NCBI GenBank assembly: GCA_016288465.1 | Contig: JAEEZC010000003.1 | Location: 1-45,767 of the forward strand | Length of the DNA: 45,767 bases | DNA from: Verrucomicrobiota bacterium | Lineage (GTDB): Bacteria > Verrucomicrobiota > Kiritimatiellia > RFP12 > UBA1067 | Reading direction: 5' to 3' | In this document: piece after piece, positions 1-45,767 of the stretch | Position numbering within the stretch: position 1 is the stretch's first letter | Layout: every line of letters begins with the position of its first letter | Notes under the pieces: model-generated | Seen by the model: only the letters and a program-made list of their open reading frames with translations | Database searches by the model: none | Told to the model about the DNA's origin: nothing | Program-made: the position numbers and the translations under genes

Positions 1-841
1 AAGGAGATGTGGCGCATAAGGGATTCCGGCTTTTACTGAAGAAAGATTCTCGCTCAAGGCCAGATGGAATTCTTGCCACGAACTATGCCTATATGGTGTA
101 CTTGGACGAGAAGCCTGATTCTTCTGGCGGGGAGAAAGGAAACTCCGCGCCGGAAGGGAATCGTGCCATGGTCAAATCGGCTGGCGTTCCTGAAAAGGGA
201 GCCGAGAGGAAGTGTTTGAAAGGCCTGACGCTTCTGCCGTGTGAAGAGAAAGAGCAATAGCCCCCTGTCTGCATGCCTTTGGAGGGCGTCTGCTTAGTGT
301 TGCGCGGTTCCTTGCCCCGTACAAGTCGTTGTCCGAGGGTGTACGCCTGTTTGGCCTAGGGTGTATGGGTGCCGCGAAAGGGGGCTTTGGGGGCTGTTTT
401 TGCTCTCAAAATAGCGGTTTTTGGGTTGCGCTGTGCGATTAGGTGGGAGTGGTGATTAGTTGCTAGTGGTTAGTGATTAGTTGATAGTTGGTGGTTGGTA
501 GGCGTGTCCGGTTGGGATTTCCGCGGCCGAACCGTTTTGGGAATGTTGTCGCAAGCACTCTTGTTCGTGAAGCCTGCGAAGTAGGCGTGTTCGTGTCGGC
601 GGCAGGGTGTGACAGGCGCACGTCGCAGGGTGCGATTCGAGTGGGTTCGGGAAAGGGATTTAAGGGACGTAAGGGACCGAAGGGGCGGGAGCGCGGCTAT
701 TGCAGCCATGGCAATTGTCTGTGGCGGAGCGGGTGGCAGTCGCATTAGAGGCCCGACCACCGTCTACATGTTCTACACGGCTATTGTAAAATCCCGCCTA
801 AATCACTTTTGCGGCAGGAAAACATAAAGCCGAATTGTCCG

Positions 842-2683
842 CTAGCTGTCCGACTTGACGGGCTTCCTCGGGACGTGTATCGGCTCGATGCCGAGTTCGG
901 CGAAGCGGCGGAACAGAGCCTTAGTTCCCTCAATTGCGCCAAATCCGTCGCAAGCCTCGTCGATTTCCGCGATTATTTCATGCGAATTGCACAAGGTGAA
1001 TCGGCGCCAGCGAAGCACCAGATAGTACGTCGACGTTCCGGTGCCCTCGTATATTCTACGGACGACGTAGACCTCCTTCACCGCCCGTCCATGCTTGGAC
1101 AGCACCTGCTTCAGCTCCTCCCGCTCGCCATCGGACATCGGGCAGGCCTGGATGTTGTCCTTCGGCTTGAGCTTCGCATTGAGCCGGCGCATAAGAGCCT
1201 TCTCTCCGTGCTGGCGCAGGTCCAGGAGGTCCTTTATGCGGTCCACCGCCCCGATTTCGAGGAAGTGGCAGAACAAGGCGCCTTCGGCCCAGAGCCGCAT
1301 CATCGGATCCTTCTCTATCAGCTGCTCAAGGCGGTCCGCGATTGGCGAGGCATCCTCGGCGGACGCCGCCTTCGGAAGCTCGTAGCAGAGTTCCGCCGTC
1401 TCGATCGCGGCGTTGTCGGGATGCGCGGCGCGACCTGCGCGCACGGCGGCAATCGCCTCGTCCTTGCGTCCAAGGGCGTTGAGGGCCATGGCGCGGTCCA
1501 GGATCTCGTCCGGAGTCGCCGAGCCGTCCTTGGGCAGGGATTCGATATACTTCTCGTTCCTCTCGCGCGATTCCTTGATCGACTTGGCCATCTCGTCGAC
1601 TGCGGGGCGCATCAGCTTGTCAACTTCGCCGTCAAGCGCGCCGGCGGAGCCGAAGATGCTCTCGAATGCGTCCTGCGGCGCGGAGGCAAATGGCACAAGC
1701 GCGTTGACGTCGGTCGTGCCTGCGCGCACCGCAAGCGGCGGATGCTCCTCCATCGGCGGAACAATCGAGCGCAGGTCGCGTTCAAGCCGACGACGCGCCT
1801 CGTCCGCCGGAATCCTGCGGCGCATCGCGGCGCGGATTGCCTCCGCAGGCGAAGCCTTGGCGCCGTTTTCGGAAACGGCGATGGGACGCATGATTTCATC
1901 CATGTCGGCGTCGGCGCCGCGCAGCTTCAGCGTGACCAGCACCTCGCGCAGCGTCTCCTCGCCGTAGAGCTGCGCAACCGAGCGGTCGGCCGCGAGTTCG
2001 CGTTCGCGCGCCACCGGAGACACCAGGCGGTCGAGACGGCGCAGATAGGAGCGGCGCCAGGGCCCCAGGGCCCAGGTAAAGACGCCGAGCTGGACGGAGC
2101 TCCAGAATACGTGGACGTGCCGAAGCGCGCCGAAATGGACGGTGTCGCTGTGCGCAATGTGTCCGAGCTCGTGCGCAAGGACGCCGCGCAGGCCGCGCTC
2201 GCCAAACGCGACGAGAAGCGGGAAGCCGAGCATAAGCACGTTGCTGCGGAGGCAGGGGACTAGCGGGAACGCGGACGACACGGAGGCGTTGAATTCGTCC
2301 GGGACGAGAAAGATTCGGTGGATGCGCGGCGCTCCGACGGCATCGGCCGTCTCGCGGACGAGTTCGTGGAGGCGCGGCCAGTCCTCGGCGCGAAGCTCCG
2401 GAAGCCCGGTCCATGACCTATGAGTAATGATGATGTAATAAGCGCTTGCCGTGACGACGAGGTTGATCACGAGGAACGAGATGAGCCGGACATGCTCCAG
2501 CGGCTCCATGACGCAGAGCGCCACAAGCCAGGCGAGAACGGCGAACAGCAGGAGTCCGACCACGGCGCCTTCCGCCAGCAGCAGCGCGAGCCTGAAGCGG
2601 TAGAACGACGGATGCTCGCGGTAGCAGCGCTCCGCGCTCTCCCACCGCTCCCATTCCCTGCGAGTGACTCCTTCCAACACCAA
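842..2683 (-). CDS. M48-family zinc metallopeptidase, membrane-anchored, TPR-like C-terminal region
   Basis: 613-aa ORF with N-terminal hydrophobic segments and an HELGH zinc motif (VLAHELGHIAHSD). A minus-strand AAGGAGG just upstream favours GTG at 2680 over TTG at 2683 as the start. The overlapping + ORF 809..2263 is an Arg/Ala-rich shadow. Confidence 0.8.
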   Translation of the reverse strand: MVLEGVTRREWERWESAERCYREHPSFYRFRLALLLAEGAVVGLLLFAVLAWLVALCVMEPLEHVRLISFLVINLVVTASAYYIIITHRSWTGLPELRAEDWPRLHELVRETADAVGAPRIHRIFLVPDEFNASVSSAFPLVPCLRSNVLMLGFPLLVAFGERGLRGVLAHELGHIAHSDTVHFGALRHVHVFWSSVQLGVFTWALGPWRRSYLRRLDRLVSPVARERELAADRSVAQLYGEETLREVLVTLKLRGADADMDEIMRPIAVSENGAKASPAEAIRAAMRRRIPADEARRRLERDLRSIVPPMEEHPPLAVRAGTTDVNALVPFASAPQDAFESIFGSAGALDGEVDKLMRPAVDEMAKSIKESRERNEKYIESLPKDGSATPDEILDRAMALNALGRKDEAIAAVRAGRAAHPDNAAIETAELCYELPKAASAEDASPIADRLEQLIEKDPMMRLWAEGALFCHFLEIGAVDRIKDLLDLRQHGEKALMRRLNAKLKPKDNIQACPMSDGEREELKQVLSKHGRAVKEVYVVRRIYEGTGTSTYYLVLRWRRFTLCNSHEIIAEIDEACDGFGAIEGTKALFRRFAELGIEPIHVPRKPVKSDS

Positions 2684-2776
2684 CGACCTCCTTCTGCCTC
2701 TTGCCGCGCTCGTTACCGGGCTATCCGCTTCCTCGGACGGCTTTGACGCGCTATTTTTCCAACTTTCGGAGCGGAT

Positions 2777-2785
2777 AGTATACCA
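2777..2785 (-). promoter_or_regulatory. Candidate extended -10 promoter (TGGTATACT on the minus strand) for the M48 peptidase gene
   Basis: The reverse complement of agtatacca reads TGGTATACT, about 95 nt upstream of the M48 start. A TTGACG-like -35 lies at 2803..2808 but with a long 20-nt spacer. Confidence 0.35.
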
Positions 2786-2840
2786 TAACCCGGTTTTTTC
2801 CGCGTCAAGGGCTCTCCGGAGTCACGGGAGCCGTATTTTT

Positions 2841-2849
2841 TGATATAAT
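2841..2849 (+). promoter_or_regulatory. Candidate extended -10 promoter (TGATATAAT) for valS
   Basis: TGaTATAAT lies 65 nt upstream of the valS ATG in the divergent intergenic region. No good -35 was seen. Confidence 0.4.
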
Positions 2850-2913
2850 ATATCCTCAATCTTTTAGGGCGTGCGCGAGCCGTCCTGCAGGAGACGAACA
2901 AAAGCACAAGACT

Positions 2914-5592
2914 ATGGACAAGCACTACGACGCGAAGGCCGCAGAGGCCAAATGGTATCCGATATGGGAGAACAACGGCTGTTTTCATGACGAGCCAGGC
3001 AAGGGCGAGCCGTATTCCGTCGTCATTCCGCCGCCGAACGTGACGGGCATTCTCCACATGGGCCATGCCCTCAACCAGACGATTCAGGACATTCTCGTCC
3101 GCTGGCGCAGGATGCAGGGGCGCAACACGCTCTGGCTGCCTGGCACGGACCATGCGGGCATTGCGACCCAGAACGTGGTCGAGAAGGCCCTCAAGAAGGA
3201 GGGCAAGCGCCGTCAGGACCTCGGGCGCGAGGCTTTTGTGGAGCGCGTGTGGGAGTGGAAGAAGCAGTACGGCGGCACGATCGTCCACCAGCAGCGCATG
3301 CTCGGCAACTCCACTGACTGGCAGAGGGAGCGCTTCACGTTCGACGAGGGATGCTCCAAGGCCGTCGCCAAGGTCTTCACCAGGCTCTACGACGAGGGCC
3401 TCGTCTACAAGGGCAACTACATCGTCAACTGGTGCCCGAGGTGCGGAACCGCGCTGGCGAACGACGAAGTCGAGCACGAGGCGCACCACGGCAACCTCTG
3501 GTACGTGAGGTATCCGGTCGTCGGCAGCGAGAAGGGCGCGGCGGGCGAGCCGTACAAGGACTACATAATGGTGGCGACGACGCGTCCGGAGACGCTGCCG
3601 GGCGACACGGCGGTCGCGGTGAACCCGAAGGACGAGCGCTATGCGCATCTTGTCGGCAAGAAGGTGATTCTGCCGCTCACCGGGCGCGAGATACCCGTCA
3701 TCAGCGACGACTACGTCGAGAGGGAGTTCGGCACCGGCATCGTGAAGATCACTCCGGCGCACGACCCCAACGACTTCCTCGTCGGCAAGCGCCACGGCCT
3801 TGAGGAGATCAACATCATGACCGACGACGGGCACATGAACGAGCTCGCCGGCGCGAAGTATGCGGGGATGGACAGGTTCGAGTGCCGCAAGGCGCTTGTC
3901 GCGGACCTTGAGTCCGGCGGCTACCTGGACCATATCGAGGACTACGACAACCAGGTCGGCCACTGCTACCGTTGCCATGAAGTCGTGGAGTCTCGTCTCT
4001 CCAAGCAGTGGTTCGTCAGGATGAAGCCTCTCGCCGAGCCCGCAATCGCGGCGGTGAAGTCCGGCGAGGTCAGGTTCGTGCCGGACCGCTGGTCGAAGAT
4101 CTACTTCAACTGGATGGAGAACATCCAGGACTGGTGCATCTCCCGTCAGCTGTGGTGGGGCCACAGGATTCCCGCCTACTACTTCGGCGACGGCAAGCTC
4201 GTCGTGGCCGAGACCCCGGAGCTCGCCCTCGAAAAGGCGAAGGCCATCGACCCGAACGTCACTGCGGCCGACCTAGAGCAGGATCCCGACGTGCTGGACA
4301 CCTGGTTCAGCTCGTGGCTGTGGCCGTTCTCCACTCTCGGCTGGCCCGAGAAGACGAAGGACCTCGACTACTACTATCCGACGACAGACCTTGTGACGGC
4401 GCAGGACATCATATTCTTCTGGGTCGCGAGGATGATGATGGCCGGCATACACTTCATGGGCAGGCCGCCGTTCAGGAACATCGTGATACACGGCATCGTT
4501 CGCGACGCCCAGGGCAGGAAGATGTCGAAGAGCCTCGGCAACTCGCTCGATCCGCTCGAGCTCATCGACGCGTACTCGGCGGACGCGCTCCGCTTCTCCA
4601 TTGCGCTCATCACGTCGCTGGACTGCGACTCGAAGGTGAGCAAGGAGAAGTTCGAGATCGGGCGCAACTTCTGCACGAAGATATGGAACGCCGCGCGCTT
4701 CATGGAGATGATGGGCGGCGGCGAGGCCGGGGGCGGCGCGCCCGACGGCCTTGCGGCGTTCGGCCGGGACCTCACAAGCGACGAGAAGCACATACTCTGG
4801 GCGACTGACATCGCGTGCCGCAAGGTGAACGACATTCTGGAGAGCTACCGCATCCAGGACGGCGCGCTTGCGGTGTACGACTTCTTCTGGACGCAGATCT
4901 GCGACTGGTACGTCGAGTACGCGAAGGACGCGCCCGACAAGAAGCGCGCCTTCGCGATTCTCCGCGACGTGTTCTGGAAGGCGCTCCGGCTTCTGCACCC
5001 GTACATGCCGTTCATCACCGAGGAGGTCGCGCACCAGCTCGGCTACCTCAAGGACGGCGAGACGATCATGCGCGCGAAGTTCCCGACCGGCTATTCCGAC
5101 GAGGAGAAGGCGGCGTGGGGCCTGTCGCAGGAGACGTACGATTTCGTGAACGCGAAGCGCGAGGCCATCACGGCGCTGCGCGCCCTCCGCGCCGAGTACA
5201 AGGTCGCGCCGTCCGCCTTCGTGAAGGCGACGATCGCGACAGACGACCCGAAGGCGAAGGCGGAGGCCGAGTCGCTGAAGCGCGCGATGCGCGCCGAGGC
5301 CGTGGAGTTCGTCGCCGCGGGCTCCGACCTCGCCATGCCGTCGAAGATCACGTCGTTCGGCACGGTCTACCTCTCTCTCGAGGGACTGGTCGACAAGGCG
5401 GCCGAGGCGAAGCGCATCGCGGCGGAGCTGGCGAAGATCGGCGGGTTCATCAAGGCGAGCGAGGCGAAGCTCGCGAACGAGAACTTCGTCGCGCACGCGC
5501 CCGAGGCCGTCGTGGCGGAGGCGAGGCGCAAGCTCGCCGAGAACAGGGAAAAGGTCGCGCAGCTGGAGAAGCTCTCGAAGCTCTTCGCATGA
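2914..5592 (+). CDS. valS: Valine--tRNA ligase
   Basis: 892 aa. Class I HIGH-type motif (PPPNVTGILHMGHALN), KMSKS motif (KMSKSLGN), and a C-terminal coiled-coil tail typical of ValRS. Confidence 0.97.
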   Translation: MDKHYDAKAAEAKWYPIWENNGCFHDEPGKGEPYSVVIPPPNVTGILHMGHALNQTIQDILVRWRRMQGRNTLWLPGTDHAGIATQNVVEKALKKEGKRRQDLGREAFVERVWEWKKQYGGTIVHQQRMLGNSTDWQRERFTFDEGCSKAVAKVFTRLYDEGLVYKGNYIVNWCPRCGTALANDEVEHEAHHGNLWYVRYPVVGSEKGAAGEPYKDYIMVATTRPETLPGDTAVAVNPKDERYAHLVGKKVILPLTGREIPVISDDYVEREFGTGIVKITPAHDPNDFLVGKRHGLEEINIMTDDGHMNELAGAKYAGMDRFECRKALVADLESGGYLDHIEDYDNQVGHCYRCHEVVESRLSKQWFVRMKPLAEPAIAAVKSGEVRFVPDRWSKIYFNWMENIQDWCISRQLWWGHRIPAYYFGDGKLVVAETPELALEKAKAIDPNVTAADLEQDPDVLDTWFSSWLWPFSTLGWPEKTKDLDYYYPTTDLVTAQDIIFFWVARMMMAGIHFMGRPPFRNIVIHGIVRDAQGRKMSKSLGNSLDPLELIDAYSADALRFSIALITSLDCDSKVSKEKFEIGRNFCTKIWNAARFMEMMGGGEAGGGAPDGLAAFGRDLTSDEKHILWATDIACRKVNDILESYRIQDGALAVYDFFWTQICDWYVEYAKDAPDKKRAFAILRDVFWKALRLLHPYMPFITEEVAHQLGYLKDGETIMRAKFPTGYSDEEKAAWGLSQETYDFVNAKREAITALRALRAEYKVAPSAFVKATIATDDPKAKAEAESLKRAMRAEAVEFVAAGSDLAMPSKITSFGTVYLSLEGLVDKAAEAKRIAAELAKIGGFIKASEAKLANENFVAHAPEAVVAEARRKLAENREKVAQLEKLSKLFA

Positions 5593-6182
5593 TAGCGTAC
5601 GTCAGGGGCACACTGGTCGAGAAGGACGTCGGCCGCGCGGTCGTCGAGGCTGGCGGAGTCGGCTACGAGCTGCTGATACCGGTATCAACGTTCGAGAGGC
5701 TGCCGAAGGAAGGCGAGGAGGCCAAGCTCCTCGCCTGGCACTGCGTCAGGGAGGACGACGAGGTCCTTTTCGGGTTCGCGACGCAGGCGGAGCGCGAGAT
5801 GTTCCAGAAGCTCACGCTCGTGAGCGGCGTGGGGCCGAAGATCGCGCTGGCGATACTTTCCGGCTCGTCCATCGGCGAGCTGTCGCTTGCCATAGCGAGC
5901 GGGAACGCAAAGCGCATATCCTCCATAAAGGGCGTGGGCAAGAAGACCGCCGAGAAGATATGCGTGGAGCTCAAGGACAGGGTGAACGCGATCGAGGCGC
6001 TTGCGTCGTCCGGAGGGCGCGGCAAGGACGCGGCGGCTCCCGCGCTGCACGACGCGGTGCTGGCGCTTACGGCCCTCGGGTTCAGCGACGAGTCCGCGAA
6101 CAAGATGGTTAGCAAGGTCGTCGCGTCCAATCCCGACGTGCGCGACACCGAGACGCTGGTGCGGCTTGCGCTCAAGGGCTGA
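5589..6182 (+). CDS. ruvA: Holliday junction branch migration complex subunit RuvA
   Basis: In-frame ATG at 5589 gives 197 aa: MIAYVRGTLVEK...GVGYELLIP...LVSGVGPKIALAILS...IKGVGKKTAEKI (two HhH motifs). ATGA overlap with the valS stop. Confidence 0.93.
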   Translation: MIAYVRGTLVEKDVGRAVVEAGGVGYELLIPVSTFERLPKEGEEAKLLAWHCVREDDEVLFGFATQAEREMFQKLTLVSGVGPKIALAILSGSSIGELSLAIASGNAKRISSIKGVGKKTAEKICVELKDRVNAIEALASSGGRGKDAAAPALHDAVLALTALGFSDESANKMVSKVVASNPDVRDTETLVRLALKG

Positions 6183-6195
6183 CCGAAGATGTGAA

Positions 6196-7974
6196 ATGGA
6201 CAAAACGGAGAATCGGAGGACAAAGACAATGAGAGAGAGTCACGTGCAGTTCGTCGTCGCCGCGGCATTCGCCTTTGCGGCGGGCCTGGCGTCGTTCGGC
6301 GGCGAGAAGGTGTACCTGTGGCCGGAAGGCAGGATGCCTGACGCGCAGCCGCACCAGATCGCCGCGATGACCGACGAAAGCAAGGCCGAGGGCTTCAATC
6401 CCGACGAGTGGCGCAGGCCGTACATCGAGTGGTACGATGCGCCGGCGGCGGAGGGGAAGACCGACGCGTGCATGATCCTCATCTCCGGCGGCGGCTACTA
6501 CAACTGCTGCGACGGCAAGCTCGTGGAGGAGTGGCACAAGAAGCTGTCCGCCCTCGGCGTCACTTGCGTCAAGCTCGTCTACCGCACTCCGCGTCCGAAC
6601 GGCATCGCAATATGGCAGAGCGCGTGGGAGGACGGCCAGCGCGCGGTGCGCCTCGTGAGGCGTGACGCGGAGAAGAGGGGCTTCAGCGCGGAGAAGATCG
6701 GAACGATGTCGATGTCGGCCGGCTCGCATCTCTCCACGCTTCTGGCGACCAGCTCGCAGACGCCGGCCTACGCGCCGGTGGACGAAGTCGACTCGACGCC
6801 GTGCCACATAAACTGGGCCTGCACGTTTGCGATCGCCTTTGCACTCACGGACGGCATAGGGACGCCCAACTCGCGTGTCGGCGACGCGGTCGACGTGAAG
6901 CTCGACTCCGTCTTCAAGTTCGACGAGAAGACCTGCCCGATGTGGATGTCGCACGGCGGAGAGGACAAGTATTCGCCGATGGCGTCCACGCTCGTCTACC
7001 GCCGTCTGCGCGAGAAGAAGGTGCCGGCGGAGCTCCATCTCTACCCGGACAAGCCGCACATGGCGATCGGCTTCGACCGCGCCGTCGAGTTCATGCGGCA
7101 GATGGGCTTTCTCGGGCCCGTGGCGCCCGATGCGGATCTGATGGAGCGCTTCGCCTCCGACGGCGACCGCGCGTCGCACTCGAAGGCCGCGATCTGGCCG
7201 GAGGGCAAGATGCCCGACGCGCAGACGAACCAGTGCACGCCGTACATAGAGTGGCACATGCCGAAGGAGCTCAAGACGAAGGCGATACAGATCATCTACT
7301 CCGGCGGCAGCTACATGAGCAACAGCCCCGACGGCTTCGAGGTCGCTCCGGCGCGCCGCTACCTGAACGCGCGCGGCATGACGGTCGTGACGATGAAGTA
7401 CCGCACTCCGCGTCCTCTCGGCGGGCTTGCGAAGCACACGACGGCGTGGCAGGACCTGCAGCGCGCGATACGCATAGTGCGCAGCGAGGCGCCGTCGCGC
7501 GGGCTTGACCCGGACCGCATCGGCATAATGGGCTCTTCCGCCGGCGGCCATCTGACGCTCATGGGCGCGACGAGCTCGAAGCACCGCTCGTATCTCGACA
7601 TCGACGCAATCGACAAGTTGCCCTGCAACGTGCAGTGGGCCGTTGCGATCTACCCTGCCTACGCGCTCACCGACGGCGCCGACAGGAACAACACGACAGG
7701 CGGCAACGCCGATTCCGCAAGGCTTGTCCCGGAGTTCTCGTTCGACCTCGCGACTCCGCCCATGCTCTTCATCCACGGCGATGCGGACGGATGGGCCGCG
7801 ATGAACTCGGTGAAGACCTGGGAGCAGCTCAGGCGCATGGGCATCCAGGGCGAGCTGCACACGCTCGTGCTGAGGCCGCACTGCTTCCAGCGCAAGGCGT
7901 CGCCGGGTACGGGCAGCTACACGTGGCTTGACCGCATTGGCGAGTTCCTCGACGCCAAGGGCTTTTGCAAATGA
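6196..7974 (+). CDS. Secreted tandem-duplicated alpha/beta-hydrolase (carbohydrate esterase-like, two esterase domains)
   Basis: Signal-peptide-like N-terminus (start ATG 6196, or alternatively 6229). Two homologous halves each carry WPEG(R/K)MPDAQ...YIEW...YRTPRP...W(E/Q)D.QRA(V/I)R.VR plus a serine motif (SMSAGSHL and GSSAGGHL). Confidence 0.75.
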   Translation: MDKTENRRTKTMRESHVQFVVAAAFAFAAGLASFGGEKVYLWPEGRMPDAQPHQIAAMTDESKAEGFNPDEWRRPYIEWYDAPAAEGKTDACMILISGGGYYNCCDGKLVEEWHKKLSALGVTCVKLVYRTPRPNGIAIWQSAWEDGQRAVRLVRRDAEKRGFSAEKIGTMSMSAGSHLSTLLATSSQTPAYAPVDEVDSTPCHINWACTFAIAFALTDGIGTPNSRVGDAVDVKLDSVFKFDEKTCPMWMSHGGEDKYSPMASTLVYRRLREKKVPAELHLYPDKPHMAIGFDRAVEFMRQMGFLGPVAPDADLMERFASDGDRASHSKAAIWPEGKMPDAQTNQCTPYIEWHMPKELKTKAIQIIYSGGSYMSNSPDGFEVAPARRYLNARGMTVVTMKYRTPRPLGGLAKHTTAWQDLQRAIRIVRSEAPSRGLDPDRIGIMGSSAGGHLTLMGATSSKHRSYLDIDAIDKLPCNVQWAVAIYPAYALTDGADRNNTTGGNADSARLVPEFSFDLATPPMLFIHGDADGWAAMNSVKTWEQLRRMGIQGELHTLVLRPHCFQRKASPGTGSYTWLDRIGEFLDAKGFCK

Positions 7975-9206
7975 AAGGAAACACGGCAATGACGAAACTC
8001 GCGATATTGGCGGCTGCCGCCGCCGCGGCGCTGCAGACCTTCGGGGCTGAGGCGGAAATCAGGGACTCCGGCACGACGTTCGCCAGGGATGCGCTTCAGA
8101 AGTACGTCGACTCGGGCGAGCTGCCCGGGGCGGTCAGCGTGTTCATGAAGGGCGGGATGAGAGAGATCGCGTGCGTGGGCTACGCCGACGTGGACGCGAA
8201 GCGCCCGGTCACCATCGACGACCCGTTCATGCAGTGCTCGCAGACGAAGGGCTTCTGCGGCGTCACTATCGCGATGCTTGTCGAGGAGGGCAAGATCTCG
8301 CTTGACGACCCCGTGTCGAAGTACCTGCCCGAGTTCAAGACGCTCTGGGTGAAGGCTTCCGAGACGAACGACGTCATCACGCTCGAGAAGGCCAGGAACG
8401 AGCTTACAGTGCGCATGGTCATGAACCACACCGGCGGCTTTCCGTTCGAGCTGCCGAACGGCCAGGCGATGGGCGGATGGTCGCGCCGCATGCCGCTCAG
8501 GAGCGTCGCCGCGACCGCCGCGTCCCAGCCGATCCTGTTCGAGCCGGGCACGAAGGTCAGGTACTCCAACGTCGGCATCGACATCGGCGCGGCGGTCGTG
8601 GAGGTCGTGACTGGCAAGCGCTGGGAGACGTTTCTCAAGGAGCGCGTCCTGGATCCCCTCGGCATGTCCGCCACCGGCTTCTGGCCGACCGACGAGCAGC
8701 TCACGAGGAAGATCGAGCTGTACGACGTCAAGGGCGGTCAGAAGGCCAAGTGGAAGATGCAGGCCGACTGGATGCAGCGTCCCTACAACGACGACCGAGT
8801 GTTCGCGTCCGCGGGCGCTGGGCTCTGGACGACGGCGCGCGACCAGCTCAAGTTCTACGGCATGCTCATGAACCTGGGCGTCGGCGACAACGGAGTGAGG
8901 ATACTCAAGGAGGAAACGGTCAAGAACCTGCTCGCCGTCTCGTCGCGTCCGAAGGGCCTGGGCGGCTACTCGCTTGGGCTCAACGCGCTCGAGGAGGACA
9001 GCGACACCGCGTGGTTCGGCCATGGCGGCGCCTGGGGCACGAACTGCTCCGTGAACTGGCACCGCAAGGAGCTCAACCTCTGGGCGTGCCAGTACAGCGG
9101 CGGGCCTCGTCCGTGGGAGGGCGCTCGCGGCGAGGCGGTGAAGAAGTTCTTCAAGTACGTGGTCGACAATTCAGGCGTCGAGGCCTACACTGGCCGTCTG
9201 AAGTAG
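7971..9206 (+). CDS. Beta-lactamase-fold serine hydrolase (class C / family VIII esterase-like), secreted
   Basis: S-x-x-K motif (CSQTKGF), Y-x-N (RYSNVG), HGG box (WFGHGGAWG) and a signal peptide. ATG 7971 overlaps the upstream stop (ATGA); ATG 7989 is an alternative start. Confidence 0.8.
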   Translation: MKGNTAMTKLAILAAAAAAALQTFGAEAEIRDSGTTFARDALQKYVDSGELPGAVSVFMKGGMREIACVGYADVDAKRPVTIDDPFMQCSQTKGFCGVTIAMLVEEGKISLDDPVSKYLPEFKTLWVKASETNDVITLEKARNELTVRMVMNHTGGFPFELPNGQAMGGWSRRMPLRSVAATAASQPILFEPGTKVRYSNVGIDIGAAVVEVVTGKRWETFLKERVLDPLGMSATGFWPTDEQLTRKIELYDVKGGQKAKWKMQADWMQRPYNDDRVFASAGAGLWTTARDQLKFYGMLMNLGVGDNGVRILKEETVKNLLAVSSRPKGLGGYSLGLNALEEDSDTAWFGHGGAWGTNCSVNWHRKELNLWACQYSGGPRPWEGARGEAVKKFFKYVVDNSGVEAYTGRLK

Positions 9207-9244
9207 GATGACGGGACATTTCGCATGATCAAGGAGGCACAGCC

Positions 9245-10543
9245 ATGCATTCGGTGATACTCGCAGCCATTCAGCTCGTAACCCTCGACCCGGGGCATTT
9301 CCACGCCTCGCTCGTCCAGAACAGGTCGTATCCGGAGGTCTCTCCGACGGTCAAGGTGTTCGCGCCTGCCGGAGCGGAGCTTGAAAGCCACCTCAAGCTG
9401 ATCGACAACTTCAACTCGCGCGCGGCGTCCCCGACCTCGTGGAAGGAGGACGTGTACCGCGGCTCCGACTACCTTGAGAAGTTCGAGGCGGCGGCAAAGG
9501 GCGGGGATCTCGGGGAGAGGCCGGTCGTGATACTCGCCGGCAAGAACAACAGGAAGGGCGACTATGCGCTCGCCGCGGTCGAGGCCGGGTGCAACGTCCT
9601 TTCCGACAAGCCGATGGCGATCACGCCCGAGGTCTTCGCAAAGACCGAGAAGGCTGCCCGTCTTGCGCAGGAGAAGGGCCTGTTCTTCGCGGACATCATG
9701 ACGGAGCGCAACGAGATCACGACGATTCTCCAGCGCTCGCTTGCGATGGACAAGGGGCTGTACGGAGAGCAGGAGAAGGGCACGCCCGAGGATCCCGCCG
9801 TGACGAAGGTCTCCGTGCACCACTTCTGCAAGCTCGTGAACGGCGCGCCGCTCAGGCGTCCGGAATGGTACTACGACACCAAGGTGCAGGGCGAGGGCAT
9901 AACGGACGTGACGACGCACCTCGTGGACCTTGTGCAGTGGGAGACCTTCCCCGGGGAGAAGCTCGCGAAGTCCGACGTCGAGGTCGTCTCCGCTAAGACG
10001 TGGGCGACGCGCATAACGCCAGAGCAGTTCAAGATGTCGACCGGCGGGACAGTCGCGGAGCCGTTTGACTGCGAGGCGAACGGCGAGTTCGTTTGGCGTC
10101 TCAGGGGCGTCAACTGCAAGGTGTCGGTCGTCTGGAACTTCATGGCGCCCAAGGGCACCGGCGACACGCACTACTCGATCATGCGCGGCAGCAAGGCCGA
10201 GCTTGTCATACGCCAGGGCGCGGACGAGGGCTACAAGCCCGTTCTGTACGTGAAGGCGCGCGGCGACGTAGCCGCGACGGGCGCGGCTCTCGAGGCGGCG
10301 CTTGCGAAGGTCCGCGGCAAGTGGGCTGGCGTCGCCGCCGTCGCCACCGACGAGAAGGGCGTCTGGCGCATCACGTATCCTTCCGAGTACGACATCGGGC
10401 ACGAGGCGCACTTCAGCCAGGTCGTGCGGATGTACCTCGACTGGATGAAGGCGGGCAAGGAGGATCCGGACTACGTCGACAACATGCTCGTGAAGTACTA
10501 CACGATAGTCGAGGCCCGCAAGAAGGCGCGCGCGGCGAAGTGA
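9245..10543 (+). CDS. Putative oxidoreductase (Rossmann N-terminal domain plus putative-oxidoreductase C-terminal domain family)
   Basis: 432 aa. The N-terminal LDPGHFHA motif and overall architecture are recalled from the Oxidoreduct_C-type family. Not verified by search. Confidence 0.65.
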   Translation: MHSVILAAIQLVTLDPGHFHASLVQNRSYPEVSPTVKVFAPAGAELESHLKLIDNFNSRAASPTSWKEDVYRGSDYLEKFEAAAKGGDLGERPVVILAGKNNRKGDYALAAVEAGCNVLSDKPMAITPEVFAKTEKAARLAQEKGLFFADIMTERNEITTILQRSLAMDKGLYGEQEKGTPEDPAVTKVSVHHFCKLVNGAPLRRPEWYYDTKVQGEGITDVTTHLVDLVQWETFPGEKLAKSDVEVVSAKTWATRITPEQFKMSTGGTVAEPFDCEANGEFVWRLRGVNCKVSVVWNFMAPKGTGDTHYSIMRGSKAELVIRQGADEGYKPVLYVKARGDVAATGAALEAALAKVRGKWAGVAAVATDEKGVWRITYPSEYDIGHEAHFSQVVRMYLDWMKAGKEDPDYVDNMLVKYYTIVEARKKARAAK

Positions 10544-11235
10544 CACTGCCTGAACCGAGACGCATCACGCTGTTCGCCGGCCATTACGGCAGCGGCAAGA
10601 CCAACGTCGCGCTCAACTATGCGCGGCGCCTGAGGCGTCTCGGCTCCGGTCCGGTCACGATAGCCGACCTGGACATCGTGAATCCGTACTTCAGGACAAA
10701 GGACTTCGCGGACGAGCTTCTGCGCGAGGGCATCGGGCTGGTCGTGTCCGAATTCGCGAACTCCAACGTGGACTTCCCCGCGATGCCGAAGGAGATATAC
10801 TCCCTTGCGGTCTCGGGGGAATGCGATGCGGGGCGCGTCGTGATGGACATCGGCGGCGACGACCGAGGCGCCCTTGCGCTTGGCCGGTATGTCGACGACA
10901 TCCGGGCGGGCGGCGACTACGAGATGGTCGGCGTCGTCAACGCCTCGCGTCCGCTGACGCGGAGGCCCGAAGACGCGGCCGAGGTGCTCAGGGAGATCGA
11001 GGAGGCGTGCGGGCTCAGGTTTACGGGGCTCGTGAACAACACGAACCTCGGGCAGCAGACGACGGCCGGGACAGTTCTCGACTCGCTTGAGTACGCAGAG
11101 TCGGTCGCGGCGCTTGTCGGGGTTGACGTTCTCTTCACGTGCTGCCGCAGCGACATCGCGCCGGAGCTTGAAGGCAGGGTCGAGAGGCTCATGCCGCTGG
11201 AAATCTTGAAACAGTACTATCAGATGGAGGAATGA
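10540..11235 (+). CDS. P-loop NTPase of unknown function (SIMIBI/GPN-loop-like)
   Basis: GTG 10540 overlaps the upstream stop (GTGA). Walker A GHYGSGKT, Walker B-like IADLD, DxxG (DIGGD), and NNTN in place of NKxD. 231 aa. Confidence 0.65.
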   Translation: MTLPEPRRITLFAGHYGSGKTNVALNYARRLRRLGSGPVTIADLDIVNPYFRTKDFADELLREGIGLVVSEFANSNVDFPAMPKEIYSLAVSGECDAGRVVMDIGGDDRGALALGRYVDDIRAGGDYEMVGVVNASRPLTRRPEDAAEVLREIEEACGLRFTGLVNNTNLGQQTTAGTVLDSLEYAESVAALVGVDVLFTCCRSDIAPELEGRVERLMPLEILKQYYQMEE

Positions 11236-42423: not shown

Positions 42424-44064
42424 ATGATGAGATGTTCGGTTCGCCAGATCGAGATTGTCGCTTTATTGGCTGCGGTTGTAGTCCAGTGCGCATTCGGGCA
42501 TGGAACTTCGCTCGGCACGTGCGCCCATGTGACGCGCGACGAGTTCGCGGAGAGGGATGCCGCCTACAAAATGATGCGCGAAGCGGGAATGGACTACGTC
42601 AGATGCGACTTCGACTGGCGCTGGTACCAGAATGGCAGGGACGCGCCGTTAGACTGGCGCATGTGCGACGCTGTCGTTGGCGACGCGGCGAAGCGCGGAA
42701 TAACCGTCCTGCCGATCCTCTGCAACCCGCCGGATTGGGCAAGGCCGGTGCAAGACCATGTCGCGGAATGGCGTTCGTTCGTGCGCGCGACGGCAACGCA
42801 CTTCAAGGGACGCATCCCGGTCTACGAAATCTGGAACGAGGAGAACCATCCCGGCTTCTGGAAGAATCCGAATGCCGAGGACTACGTGCCTGTCCTTAGG
42901 GCCGCATACGAGGAGATCAAGGCGGTCGATCCGTCTGCCAAGGTCGCCATCGGCGGCACTGCCGGGTTGGCGCTCGATTATCTTGAGGACGTGTACAAGG
43001 CGGGCGGCAAAGACTGCTTCGACATAATGAACGTCCATCCGTACAGCTGGCCGAATCCGCCGGACGCGCTTGCCGGGCAGATGGAGAGTCTGCGCAGGCT
43101 CATGGCGAAGTACGGCGACGCGGCGAAACCGGTCTGGATAACGGAGATTGGGTGGCCGACGCACAGGGCTTCCGTGCCGATGGCGGGCGTTCTGCTCGCA
43201 GGGCTGAAGATAGCCCGTCCGGAACGGAAAACCTGGCGCGTCGGCTACGTCGACGAGGCGGACAACATGGACATGACGCGGGATATCGCAGAGGGAATCC
43301 GCGAATGCCTTCCGCAAGGTTCGACGTGCAGGGCCTGTACGGCGGCGGAGCTTGTCGCGGCGCTTGGGACGAACGGACTCGACGCGGTCGTCTATCCGTA
43401 CACTGAGGCGTATCCGTTCGCGACGGTCAAGGCTGTGGCGCAGTTCGTGAAGCGCGGCGGAGTGCTGGCTGATTTCGGCGGCTCGCCGATGTACTATCCT
43501 GTTCTGGACGGAAAGCGCGTCCAGAAGGATGCCGAAGGAAAGGACCTTTTCGGCGCGACGGCGCCGAAGTTCCGCATCAGCGTGTATGGTCCGGGCAAGG
43601 AGAACGGGCTTAAATGGGGCGTAAAGACGTTCGCCACCGACGCTGCGACAAAGGCCGGCATGAAGTTCGAGCCGAACGGATTCGGCGCGTTCCGGTTCTT
43701 CAGGGCCGACCGTCTGCAGTCCGGCGACGAGATGGTTCCGCTTCTGTCGGTGAAGGACGTGAAAGGGGAGGACGCTGTCAGCGCATGCGTATACCGCTTC
43801 GGCAGCGACTTGAAAGGGGCTGTGATCGTCTCGGGCTGCACGGGCGCTGCGGGCGGAGTCGGCGAGCGGCAGCAGGCGGAATATCTCCAACATGCGCTGG
43901 CCGCGGCTGCGCAGACAGGCGTCGAGCGCGTGTTCGTCTACGAGTTTCGCGCGAACGAGAAGGATCCGCGCTACAGCGAAGACCATTTCGGCATCGTCCA
44001 TCGTGATTTCACCCCCAAGCCCGCGTATGAGGTGCTCAAAGCCGGCTCCGATGTCCAATTGTAA
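42424..44064 (+). CDS. Secreted clan GH-A glycoside hydrolase paralog with C-terminal GATase1-like (GH42 domain-B-like) module
   Basis: GGAGGA SD, then ATG 42424 and a signal peptide. YEIWNEENHP and VWITEIGWPT motifs, plus HPYSWPNPPD shared with the upstream paralog (HPYCYPNPPD). Confidence 0.85.
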   Translation: MMRCSVRQIEIVALLAAVVVQCAFGHGTSLGTCAHVTRDEFAERDAAYKMMREAGMDYVRCDFDWRWYQNGRDAPLDWRMCDAVVGDAAKRGITVLPILCNPPDWARPVQDHVAEWRSFVRATATHFKGRIPVYEIWNEENHPGFWKNPNAEDYVPVLRAAYEEIKAVDPSAKVAIGGTAGLALDYLEDVYKAGGKDCFDIMNVHPYSWPNPPDALAGQMESLRRLMAKYGDAAKPVWITEIGWPTHRASVPMAGVLLAGLKIARPERKTWRVGYVDEADNMDMTRDIAEGIRECLPQGSTCRACTAAELVAALGTNGLDAVVYPYTEAYPFATVKAVAQFVKRGGVLADFGGSPMYYPVLDGKRVQKDAEGKDLFGATAPKFRISVYGPGKENGLKWGVKTFATDAATKAGMKFEPNGFGAFRFFRADRLQSGDEMVPLLSVKDVKGEDAVSACVYRFGSDLKGAVIVSGCTGAAGGVGERQQAEYLQHALAAAAQTGVERVFVYEFRANEKDPRYSEDHFGIVHRDFTPKPAYEVLKAGSDVQL

Positions 44065-44251
44065 GGTAGTGGTCTGGCTCGCTTGTTATGTGCTTGCTTC
44101 TGCGATGAAGACGACTCGGGTCGGCCTAGTCGACGTACTCGTCGTAAACCCTCATCCTCCCGTCCGCAGCAGTTTGCTGTGGCTCAGCACTGTTTCCACT
44201 CTGTTTTTGAAGAGTGTTTGGAATGCACTATAGACGCAAAAGAACCTCCTG

Positions 44252-44260
44252 TGATATAAT
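44252..44260 (+). promoter_or_regulatory. Candidate extended -10 promoter (TGATATAAT)
   Basis: TGaTATAAT with TAGACG 17 nt upstream. Lies 32 nt upstream of the small ORF starting at 44292. Confidence 0.4.
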
Positions 44261-44291
44261 ATTTGCAACAAGAGGTTGAAAGGCGTCTCTT

Positions 44292-44408
44292 ATGGTGCTC
44301 GGAAAAATTCAGCATTTCATGACGCGTCGCTTTGACAGGGAAGGGACGAAACGCCATCATGTTCAGACGTTTCGTGCCATGCGCGCGCTTCCTCCGGACA
44401 TGCGATGA
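44292..44408 (+). CDS. Tiny basic ORF (38 aa), hypothetical
   Basis: MVLGKIQHFMTRRFDREGTKRHHVQTFRAMRALPPDMR. Its TGA overlaps the ATG of the next tiny ORF (ATGA). Below the ORF-track cutoff; read by hand. Confidence 0.25.
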   Translation: MVLGKIQHFMTRRFDREGTKRHHVQTFRAMRALPPDMR

Positions 44409-44530
44409 GCATAAATGGAAAGCAGTCGAACATCACGGACGAAGATCTCCTTGAAGTGGCGGCGCGATATTCAATAGGTTCGGCGGAGTCGATGCTGGCT
44501 GAAATCAAAAGCGTGTTCGCTTCCGGCTGA
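44405..44530 (+). CDS. Tiny acidic ORF (41 aa), hypothetical
   Basis: MSINGKQSNITDEDLLEVAARYSIGSAESMLAEIKSVFASG. Translationally coupled to the preceding ORF and ends 16 nt before the first repeat copy. Confidence 0.25.
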   Translation: MSINGKQSNITDEDLLEVAARYSIGSAESMLAEIKSVFASG

Positions 44531-44546
44531 ACTTTGGAAGAACGTC

Positions 44547-44604
44547 TGTCAGATTCGCCATTAGGCAGTTCCGGCTGAGAGAGCCCGGACAGGCCTGCGG
44601 GCGG
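44547..44604. repeat. Direct repeat copy 1 (TGTCAGATTC plus a 48-nt hairpin-containing unit)
   Basis: The 48-nt unit 44557..44604 (GCCATTAGGCAGTTCCGGCTGAGAGAGCCCGGACAGGCCTGCGGGCGG) is identical to 45509..45556. An imperfect hairpin pairs 44563..44574 with 44585..44596. Confidence 0.85.
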
Positions 44605-44694
44605 AAGTGCCGAGAGTGTCAGTGGCTGTGCCTGGCACAAAAACGCAGATTGCGAGATTATTTGCCGGCGCTATTGTCTGTTGGGCTTTGGCCG

Positions 44695-44724
44695 TTGACT
44701 TTTGGCGATGTTATTTGGTACAAT
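44695..44724 (+). promoter_or_regulatory. Promoter of the vapBC-type operon: TTGACT-18 nt-TACAAT with TGG extended -10
   Basis: TTGACT at 44695..44700 and TGGTACAAT with the hexamer at 44719..44724. Lies 44 nt upstream of the GTG start. Confidence 0.6.
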
Positions 44725-44730
44725 CATCGG

Positions 44731-44755
44731 TGACATCATTTTGCTTTCAAAATGA
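44731..44755. promoter_or_regulatory. Candidate antitoxin operator: TGACATCATTT-N8-AAATGA (inverted repeat TCATTTT/AAAATGA)
   Basis: Lies immediately downstream of the -10 box, around the predicted transcription start. Its arms are reverse complements of each other. Confidence 0.45.
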
Positions 44756-44767
44756 AAGGGTGTTCCT

Positions 44768-45049
44768 GTGGCTACAGTTACAGTTCGAGAGTTGTCTGCA
44801 CGCACGCTTGATGCGCTTAAGATGCGCGCAAGCGCAAACCACCGCAGTCTCAATGGCGAGATACTGTGCATTTTCGACTACGCGGTCTCCGGCTCGTCTG
44901 AGTTTGACTTCATACGTGAGAACCGGGCAAGGAGCCAACGCGATGCTCTTAAGGCCGTGTTCGGCAGATGGGACGACGACAGAAGCGAAGATGAGATTGT
45001 CAGGGAGGTTGAGAATTCCCGGACGAAGGGCCGGGAGGTCATCCTTTGA
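44768..45049 (+). CDS. vapB: Ribbon-helix-helix antitoxin (FitA/VapB-type)
   Basis: N-terminus TVRELSARTLDALKMRASANHRSLNGEILCIFDY matches the Arc/FitA RHH pattern. GTG start. Its stop overlaps the toxin start (TTGA). Confidence 0.85.
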   Translation: MATVTVRELSARTLDALKMRASANHRSLNGEILCIFDYAVSGSSEFDFIRENRARSQRDALKAVFGRWDDDRSEDEIVREVENSRTKGREVIL

Positions 45050-45438
45050 TATTGCTTGATACGAATGTCCTCATTGCCATACTTCGCGGCAATAAGAAGG
45101 TCGCTGAGCGCTTCTCGCGTAATCTTGGGGATATGGCGATTCCCGCAATGGTTGTAGGCGAACTGCATTTCGGTGCCGCTAAATCCAGGAATCCGGCGAA
45201 AAACCGGAGATTGGTACAGGCACTTCTGGGGGCGCTTCCTGTCATGCACACTACTGACGCGATAATGGAACTGTTCGGCGAGCATAAGGCGGTTTTGGCA
45301 AGCCGAGGAGAATCAGTCGAGGACGCGGATGTCCTCATTGCCGCAACGGCCCTTGCCTATGACGCGACGCTTGTTACAGGCAACATCCGCCATTTCTCGC
45401 GATTTGAGGGGTTGCGGATTGAAGACTGGAACAGTTGA
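45046..45438 (+). CDS. vapC: PIN-domain ribonuclease toxin (VapC/FitB-type)
   Basis: MILLDTNVLIAIL... with conserved acidic residues (D5, E39 region, D-rich SVEDADVLIAATA). 130 aa. TTG start. Confidence 0.9.
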   Translation: MILLDTNVLIAILRGNKKVAERFSRNLGDMAIPAMVVGELHFGAAKSRNPAKNRRLVQALLGALPVMHTTDAIMELFGEHKAVLASRGESVEDADVLIAATALAYDATLVTGNIRHFSRFEGLRIEDWNS

Positions 45439-45473
45439 TTCCAATTGGTGAGCCGCTTAAGCTGTAGCCCGCT

Positions 45474-45556
45474 TGTCAGATTCTCCGACAGCCGTCGTAT
45501 ATTCGTGTGCCATTAGGCAGTTCCGGCTGAGAGAGCCCGGACAGGCCTGCGGGCGG
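45474..45556. repeat. Direct repeat copy 2 (TGTCAGATTC, 25-nt insertion, identical 48-nt unit)
   Basis: TGTCAGATTC lies at 45474..45483. The 48-nt unit 45509..45556 is identical to 44557..44604, 952 bp downstream of copy 1. Confidence 0.85.
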
Positions 45557-45767
45557 CAAGGTTTTCGCCAGAACGCCACGTGTTCAAAGCGAGTGCGTTT
45601 GGTATTAAGGCTGAGGGGTCTGTCCCCGTCATGGCCTTTTGACGCGTTATTGCTGACTTTTTGCGAGATTCAGGCACTTATGCAATACGGGTGGCGCGGC
45701 AACGCGAAGGGGATGGCTGTCACTTGAGCATTTGCCGCAAGTCCCTTCAGGCAGAGTTTCCTGTCGC

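Follow-up and report, generated by a model that had tools for sequence, protein, structure and literature searches.

The 48-nt repeats around a vapBC pair in a Kiritimatiellae genome are probably truncated copies of a predicted promoter and small-RNA module

The window analysed here is a stretch of 45,767 nt that makes up the entire contig C91 (JAEEZC010000003.1) of a metagenome-assembled genome (MAG) of a Verrucomicrobiota bacterium (GCA_016288465.1, here G000; 393 contigs, 82.6% complete). Close to its end lies a vapBC pair, a standard combination of a ribbon-helix-helix antitoxin and a PIN-domain toxin whose genes overlap by 4 nt, which assigns it to the type II VapBC systems. Two identical copies of a 48-nt sequence, GCCATTAGGCAGTTCCGGCTGAGAGAGCCCGGACAGGCCTGCGGGCGG, flank this pair (Table 1). 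The 48-mers are probably not recombination sites; the evidence assembled below favours 3'-truncated copies of a module, found in rumen and gut Kiritimatiellae, that consists of a promoter of the extracytoplasmic function (ECF) type and a small RNA or leader.

An earlier sequence-only reading had described the two copies as direct repeats preceded by a common motif, and these observations are exact. The 48-mer occurs exactly twice in the window, both times on the plus strand, with a start-to-start spacing of 952 nt, and in 100 shuffles no match appeared. The motif TGTCAGATTC abuts copy 1, 16 nt after the end (44530) of a pair of tiny open reading frames (ORFs). For copy 2, it is found at 45474-45483, 35 nt after vapC, and is separated from the 48-mer by 25 nt (TCCGACAGCCGTCGTATATTCGTGT). 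The hairpin noted in the 48-mer is real as well, even though its fold, taken alone, is unexceptional (z -1.8). What had been taken for a 25-nt insertion in copy 2, however, is a deletion in copy 1: comparison with relatives identifies the 25 nt as ancestral, because they contain the conserved CGTATA box.

A genome-wide search of G000 raises the number of exact 48-mers to three. The third, on contig C231 (10959-11006, minus strand), shares 86-87 identical nt with copy 2 and belongs to a full element. All three copies are 100% identical and have sharp borders. The homology of the window copies to full elements breaks off directly behind GGCGG, midway along the 5' arm of a long hairpin, designated T1. 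Both copies end at the same base, both lack the 3' arm of T1, and neither has a U-run behind the hairpin. Downstream of copy 2, the C231 copy remains weakly similar for about 12 nt, after which come 49 nt of unrelated sequence and then a dispersed repeat.

A pattern search of 60 relatives, exact or with three mismatches, gave no match to the element. BLAST with an 86-mer recovered homologues that are 72-93% identical, spread over several genera and many genomes of the family, often two to four per contig on the same strand. About 45 homologues are known from rumen Kiritimatiellae MAGs. With a covariance model (R1), the element was detected in 25 of the 117 genomes of the genus, at one to four copies each, and a scan of species representatives gave matches only in rumen or gut Kiritimatiellae MAGs (RUG, the RGIG goat and sheep bins, and UBA "Verrucomicrobia"). 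The element is thus of low copy number, patchy and restricted to one lineage. For this reason, it is not a repetitive extragenic palindromic (REP) sequence, although REP-bounded units had been proposed from the sequence: arrays of REPs or bacterial interspersed mosaic elements (BIMEs) need tens to hundreds of copies, and the low copy number contradicts this reading. The broader idea of a selfish repeat, be it like a REP, a BIME or a miniature inverted-repeat transposable element (MITE), or of an intrinsic terminator shared by the upstream genes, is very improbable. It draws on the GC-rich hairpin and on the location of the window copies 16 and 35 nt after stop codons. Reading of the element revealed no tRNA-like ends and no terminal inverted repeats as a MITE would have, the hairpins of the window copies lack the U-run of a terminator, and many homologues have no co-directional upstream gene at all.

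The alignment of about 40 copies, with conservation counted in 33 aligned homologues, places a promoter-like motif in front of the 48-mer. This motif, P1, reads TGTCAG-N16-CGTATA. Its two boxes, TGTCAGATT and CGTAT(A), are nearly invariant, and the 14 nt between them are constant in length and free in sequence, which is the signature of a promoter. After CGTAT(A) follow 7-8 variable nt, and conservation resumes exactly at the first base of the 48-mer. CGTA is a -10 element of ECF-class promoters such as those of the B. subtilis sigma-W group, and a spacing of 16 nt is typical of ECF sigma factors (PMC5758882). P1 shows both features, its -10 box containing CGT and its spacer having a constant length within the expected range of about 16-17 nt; read as a sigma70 promoter, it would have a spacing of 19 nt. 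The strict P1 motif has three matches in G000, namely window copy 2, the full copy on C231 and C231:3148-3175, where it stands without any RNA part directly before a gene for an MreB-ADP-ribosylglycohydrolase fusion. In window copy 1, the 25 missing nt held the spacer, the -10 box CGTATA and the discriminator, so that the P1 of this copy is probably dead. A distance of 90 nt separates copy 1 from the vapBC promoter downstream of it, which occupies the position where full elements carry a second promoter, P2, though homology to P2 is not demonstrable.

Transcription from P1 is predicted to start 7-8 nt after the promoter, at the G of GCCAUUAGG, which is the first base of the 48-mer, and would yield an RNA of about 90 nt. 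The 48-mer would then represent bases +1 to +48 of this RNA, ending within the 5' arm of T1. Hairpin 1 has the form GCC-AUUA-GGC. Other clades have GCUC-ACAAG-GAGC, GCC-AUAUC-GGC or GUC-AUUC-GAC instead, so that its variation (GCC/GGC, GCUC/GAGC, GUC/GAC) preserves pairing. Hairpin 2, UCCGGC-UGAGAGAG-CCCGGA, carries a GAGAGAG loop that is invariant in all 33 sequences. The only covarying pair of its stem is the outermost, which is UA in 20 and CG in 10 of the 33, and 94.8% of its alignment cells are paired, a share that drops to 68% or less once the partner strand is slid. The last 14 nt of the 48-mer, AGGCCUGCGGGCGG, are the 5' arm of T1, which full copies complete as a long hairpin with a U-run. 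The full RNA on C231 folds into precisely these three structures at -42.9 kcal/mol (z -4.8), and none of 200 shuffles folded as well; hairpin 2 and T1, with six compensated pairs, also emerge when RNAalifold is applied to 17 full copies. The U-run of T1 is overlapped by P2, a sigma70 promoter with an extended -10 (TTTGGTATAAT), which leads into a protein gene or a larger RNA. A predicted promoter and intrinsic terminator of its own are thus present in the C231 copy and in most homologues, while the window copies are without the 3' arm of T1. Rfam 15 contains nothing relevant that matches the window region with an E value up to 5, or five loci with the full element and the larger RNA with an E value up to 1. 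Judged by its sequence, the module is most likely a previously undescribed small-RNA family in rumen Kiritimatiellae.

The larger RNA, of about 260 nt, is itself absent from Rfam 15. It has its own promoter (P2) and terminator. Of its 18 distinct homologues, 16 are found immediately behind a full element, and among the 17 aligned ones this holds for 15. RNAalifold predicts long-range helices in it, namely GCGUCGGAUG/CAUCCGAUGC, GCCUGAGA/UCUCAGGC and CCGGAAAGAC/GUAUCUUUCCGG, and 22 of the 57 predicted pairs show compensatory changes. In the diverged paralogue on contig C322, GCCUGAGA/UCUCAGGC is replaced by GCGUAGGA/UCCUACGC. These helices are predicted to compete with a 16-bp terminator hairpin followed by a U-run, as in an attenuator. 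One segment of the large RNA, UC(C/U)GGGCUCUCUCAG, shares 15 nt of complementarity with hairpin 2 of the small RNA, made up in G000 of 12 Watson-Crick pairs plus an extension. When the contiguous complementary length was compared with that of 500 shuffles, three of them reached 15 nt. The C322 paralogue has no element upstream, and the complement to hairpin 2 is absent from it. This distribution suggests that the small RNA may pair with the large RNA and tip it toward termination.

The same features bear on a different view of hairpin 2, according to which it is an imperfect palindromic DNA operator, bound by a transcription factor that controls the adjacent promoter or promoters, and no functional small RNA exists. 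Its position between P1 and P2 would suit such a role, as would the near-palindrome CCGGCTGAGAGAGCCCGG with its fully conserved loop and single covarying stem pair. An operator alone is nevertheless unlikely, as full copies always continue into a strong terminator that has a U-run and shows compensatory changes, and such a structure would serve no purpose unless the DNA were transcribed. The pair-preserving changes of hairpin 1 and the loss of the 15-nt complement from the paralogue that lacks the element likewise speak for an RNA.

The genes around the homologues establish the orientation of the element. It precedes genes of very diverse kinds and is oriented in their direction. In at least 11 homologues, the sole gene on the upstream side encodes an ATP-binding cassette (ABC) transporter and is divergently transcribed, so that the element cannot belong to the 3' end of an upstream gene. 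An orthologue of this transporter gene was not found in the G000 assembly. The element is accordingly a 5' module before genes and not a 3' site behind them. The genes that follow it encode Sel1-repeat proteins, DUF4143 AAA ATPases, kinases, XRE-type antitoxin-like proteins, VapB, dynamin-like GTPases, PrsW and, on C231, a set of Hsp70-like, HerA-like and nuclease proteins.

The sigma factor that may read P1 is suggested by its neighbourhood in two genera. At loci L039 (G106) and L047 (G174), an operon encoding a Ser/Thr kinase and an ECF sigma factor of about 205 aa, and at L047 one further ORF, is preceded at a distance of about 60 nt by a copy that lacks T1. Orthologues of this sigma factor (63-100% identical) are encoded in 27 of the 117 genomes of the genus. 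They occur together with the element in 19 genomes, an odds ratio of 33 among related genomes that are not independent. In 18 of these 19, the element and the sigma gene are on one contig, 75-6108 nt apart, and the element is usually downstream and on the strand of the sigma gene. Autoregulation and a location next to the target genes are the rule for ECF sigma factors, and control by Ser/Thr kinases has been described (PMC7826278). The genetic link to a cognate sigma factor is thus seen in relatives and not within G000. P1 is most likely read by the Ser/Thr-kinase-associated ECF sigma factor that relatives encode near the module, as its association with the motif indicates.

In relatives, the element forms same-strand arrays with variable accessory genes between the copies, for instance three in a row on G162:C38. 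At the same locus, G162 has one additional unit of module plus ATPase gene compared with G006. The layout is therefore cassette-like, and in this respect the sequence-only reading was right about a cassette array, but it had read the unit backwards, the element being placed 5' of the genes. Such arrays could mean that mobile cassettes, the 952-bp vapBC unit among them, are delimited by the repeats as site-specific recombination sites, which would be either attC-like or duplicates of an RNA-gene target in the manner of attL and attR. The complete identity and sharp borders of the three copies in G000, the common base at which the window copies are cut, the additional unit in G162 and the accessory or defence-like, low-GC3 (GC content at third codon positions) neighbours of the element would all agree with this. 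Several observations make it an unlikely explanation. No integron integrase (IntI) was found in the assembled 82.6% of G000, where the best matches to TIGR02249 score 72-77 bits against a cut-off of 265 and are ordinary tyrosine recombinases, likely of the Xer type. The 87-nt unit contains no AAC and neither RYYYAAC nor GTTRRRY on either strand: its sole GTT, in CAGTTCC, departs from GTTRRRY, as does CCGGAAC on the reverse strand from RYYYAAC. These results, together with the 5' location, speak against the integron-like nature first proposed. The suggestion to look for a recombinase nearby led to none, as PF00589 is absent from the element-bearing contigs of five relatives (G162, G185, G106, G174 and G021), and for 123 neighbouring ORFs, divided into two sets, the 25 most frequent Pfam families listed per set include no recombinase. 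An attC site lies 3' of a mostly promoterless ORF, whereas the homologues have promoter boxes and lie 5' of co-oriented genes, and the P1 motif also stands alone before a gene. Among the array copies within one genome, the promoter spacer has diverged while the -35 box, the -10 box and the hairpins are kept, which argues for selection on promoter and RNA features. The cassette-like arrays of relatives are real, but on present evidence they are better explained by duplication or homologous exchange between module copies.

The promoter and small-RNA module remains the preferred explanation, and it would operate as follows. P1 would produce a transcript with hairpins 1 and 2 that terminates at T1, and P2 would drive the structured RNA of about 260 nt or a protein gene. 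As a proposed function, hairpin 2 would pair with the complementary segment UCCGGGCUCUCUCAG of the large RNA, which would disturb the antiterminator-like long-range helices there and favour the terminator. Both window copies would be paralogues cut at the same point inside T1. Copy 2, which keeps P1, would be read through, because it lacks a terminator, into DNA now interrupted by the dispersed repeat and the end of the contig. Copy 1 is probably a dead remnant that could be transcribed by read-through only. The module-gene-module layout of the window most likely arose like the arrays of relatives, through duplication or homologous exchange between module copies.

Several points weigh against this explanation. 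The high conservation of the 48-mer leaves little covariation within it, and the strict invariance of the loop of hairpin 2 would equally fit the site of a DNA-binding protein. Three completely identical copies with sharp borders would equally fit recent recombination at the repeat. The pairing between the small and the large RNA is without covariation support, since both partners are invariant. The matching ECF sigma factor is absent from the assembled 82.6% of G000, the best paralogues being 27-32% identical, and the copies close to the kinase-sigma operons have an imperfect -35 region (a spacer longer by 7 nt at L039, CGGCAG at L047). Finally, the start site, termination at T1 and the existence of the small RNA are all inferred.

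A more far-reaching proposal, possible but doubtful as a whole, is a switch of two RNAs. The ECF-induced small RNA would pair, via its GAGAGAG hairpin, with the attenuator RNA of about 260 nt that the adjoining promoter produces. A signal sensed by the kinase would in this manner gate a defence-like cargo (Hsp70-like, HerA-like and nuclease proteins, dynamin-like GTPases, AAA ATPases and toxin-antitoxin pairs). The module would then be a portable regulatory head whose copies recombine into cassette-like arrays without a dedicated integrase.

Some further observations concern the surroundings of the element. On C231, the RNAs (L054) are followed on the minus strand, at 1-10600, by a set of genes with low GC3. 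They encode two ATPases, one Hsp70-like (607 aa) and one HerA-like (1203 aa), an NS-endonuclease-domain protein of 317 aa and a zinc-ribbon protein. The second P1 of this contig comes next, ahead of the genes for the MreB-ADP-ribosylglycohydrolase fusion (676 aa) and a trypsin-PDZ protease, and the whole looks like a defence or stress island. Small genes on the upstream side of the full element (L003; C231:11100-12250, minus strand) appear to resemble DUF3791, DUF3990 and again DUF3791, the DUF3990-like frame being apparently split. At L040 (G185:C79:1-19999), a 924-nt segment that comprises the 5' part of the ABC-transporter gene and the start of the element occurs in two copies, 98% identical to each other. 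Between them lie about 10 kb with an IS200-like Y1 transposase gene, an ORF of 1402 aa, a Ser/Thr kinase gene and an ECF sigma gene.

In the window itself, the tiny ORF pair (44292-44530) resembles the remnant of an internally deleted gene. The first ORF weakly matches HipA_C (E 1.6e-4), and both halves match relatives at 78-83% DNA identity, where they are about 256 nt apart. A DNA search with positions 42800-45620 revealed no syntenic close relative and no vapBC homologue, and a metagenome scan for a 44-mer matched only the contig of G000 itself. The dispersed repeat, unrelated to the module, opens with AAGGCYRAGGGGACTGTCCCCGTCATGGCCTTTTGACGCG..., forms a hairpin with a U-run and continues with about 130 conserved nt ending in ...CCTGTCGCATCAAGAAGGTAG. 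Its copies in G000 are 72-96% identical, some of them in tandem, and it may be a MITE, a family of small RNAs or one end of a larger element. The contig stops just past copy 2 because this high-copy repeat starts there, taking up roughly the last 160 nt.

Table 1. Coordinates of the repeats, the vapBC pair and related features in the window and elsewhere in G000
Feature	Position	Strand	Remarks
Remnant -35 box (TGTCAGATTC) of P1, copy 1	44547..44556	+	compare TGTCAGATT-N14-CGTATA in 33 homologues
48-mer copy 1	44557..44604	+	predicted RNA bases +1 to +48; 3' arm of T1 absent
Hairpin 1, copy 1	44557-44566	+	
Hairpin 2, copy 1	44570-44589	+	GAGAGAG loop
5' arm of T1, copy 1	44591-44604	+	
vapBC promoter, sigma70 type	44695..44724	+	TTGACT, 18 nt, TG-n-TACAAT
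vapB-like antitoxin gene	44768..45049	+	FitA-like ribbon-helix-helix, 93 aa; PF22513, E 1.9e-10
vapC-like toxin gene	45046..45438	+	PIN domain, 130 aa; PF01850, E 2.6e-16
P1 of copy 2, intact	45474..45501	+	TGTCAG-N16-CGTATA; predicted start ~45508-45509; one of 3 genome matches
48-mer copy 2	45509..45556	+	hairpin 1, hairpin 2, 5' arm of T1; 3' arm of T1 absent
Start of unrelated dispersed repeat	45606..45767	+	>30 copies in G000, many at contig ends
Full module, example	G000:C231 ~11043-10915	-	P1, hairpin 1, hairpin 2, T1, P2
Large RNA, two diverged paralogues in G000	C231:10620-10925 (-) and C322:12705-12960 (-)		L054, L055

What appeared to be a cassette repeat thus becomes a concrete regulatory unit that lends itself to testing, in a phylum where experimental genetics is nearly absent. 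This unit combines a predicted ECF promoter motif, a putative new small-RNA family and a new RNA of about 260 nt with well-supported alternative helices, and its parts are linked to one kinase-sigma pair and to variable accessory or defence genes. If the interpretation is true, it would describe the first regulon of a Ser/Thr-kinase-associated ECF sigma factor in Kiritimatiellae and add two RNA families to Rfam. The vapBC pair of the window would then be flanked by decayed regulatory modules and not by mobility sites, which is relevant for the annotation of such islands.

Among known systems, integron cassette arrays share with the module the same-strand, imperfect-hairpin repeats between small accessory genes, toxin-antitoxin modules included. 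The module differs from them in having neither IntI nor R''/R' core sites, in its location 5' of the gene and in bearing a promoter. Moreover, attC sites conserve mainly structure, whereas the primary sequence of the module is conserved across genera. Closer to the proposed function are the kinase-regulated ECF sigma factors (PMC7826278), which likewise combine an operon of kinase and sigma factor, a conserved bipartite upstream motif and nearby targets; here, the promoter motif is predicted from association only.

The SigmaE-dependent small RNAs MicA, RybB and MicL (PMC4102768) resemble the module as short RNA genes with an ECF promoter and an intrinsic terminator that belong to a small ECF regulon and act by base pairing. 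The module has no sequence or Rfam relationship to them. It differs further in its several paralogues per genome, some of which are terminator-less, and in its head-to-tail fusion to a sigma70 promoter. SigmaE-dependent small RNAs target porin mRNAs, while the proposed target of the module is the neighbouring structured RNA, and SigmaE is controlled by RseA, while the sigma factor of the module would, to judge from sequence, be of the Ser/Thr-kinase-associated type. The proposed action on this target finds its nearest parallel in antisense attenuation, as in the copy control of pT181 and pIP501 and in RnaG-icsA (PMC2879508). Unlike these antisense RNAs, the small RNA of the module is encoded upstream on the same strand and not opposite its target, with a complementarity of about 15 nt, and its mechanism is deduced from the alternative helices of the large RNA. 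Common to both would be a hairpin loop that pairs with a nascent leader and turns an antiterminator-like fold into a terminator.

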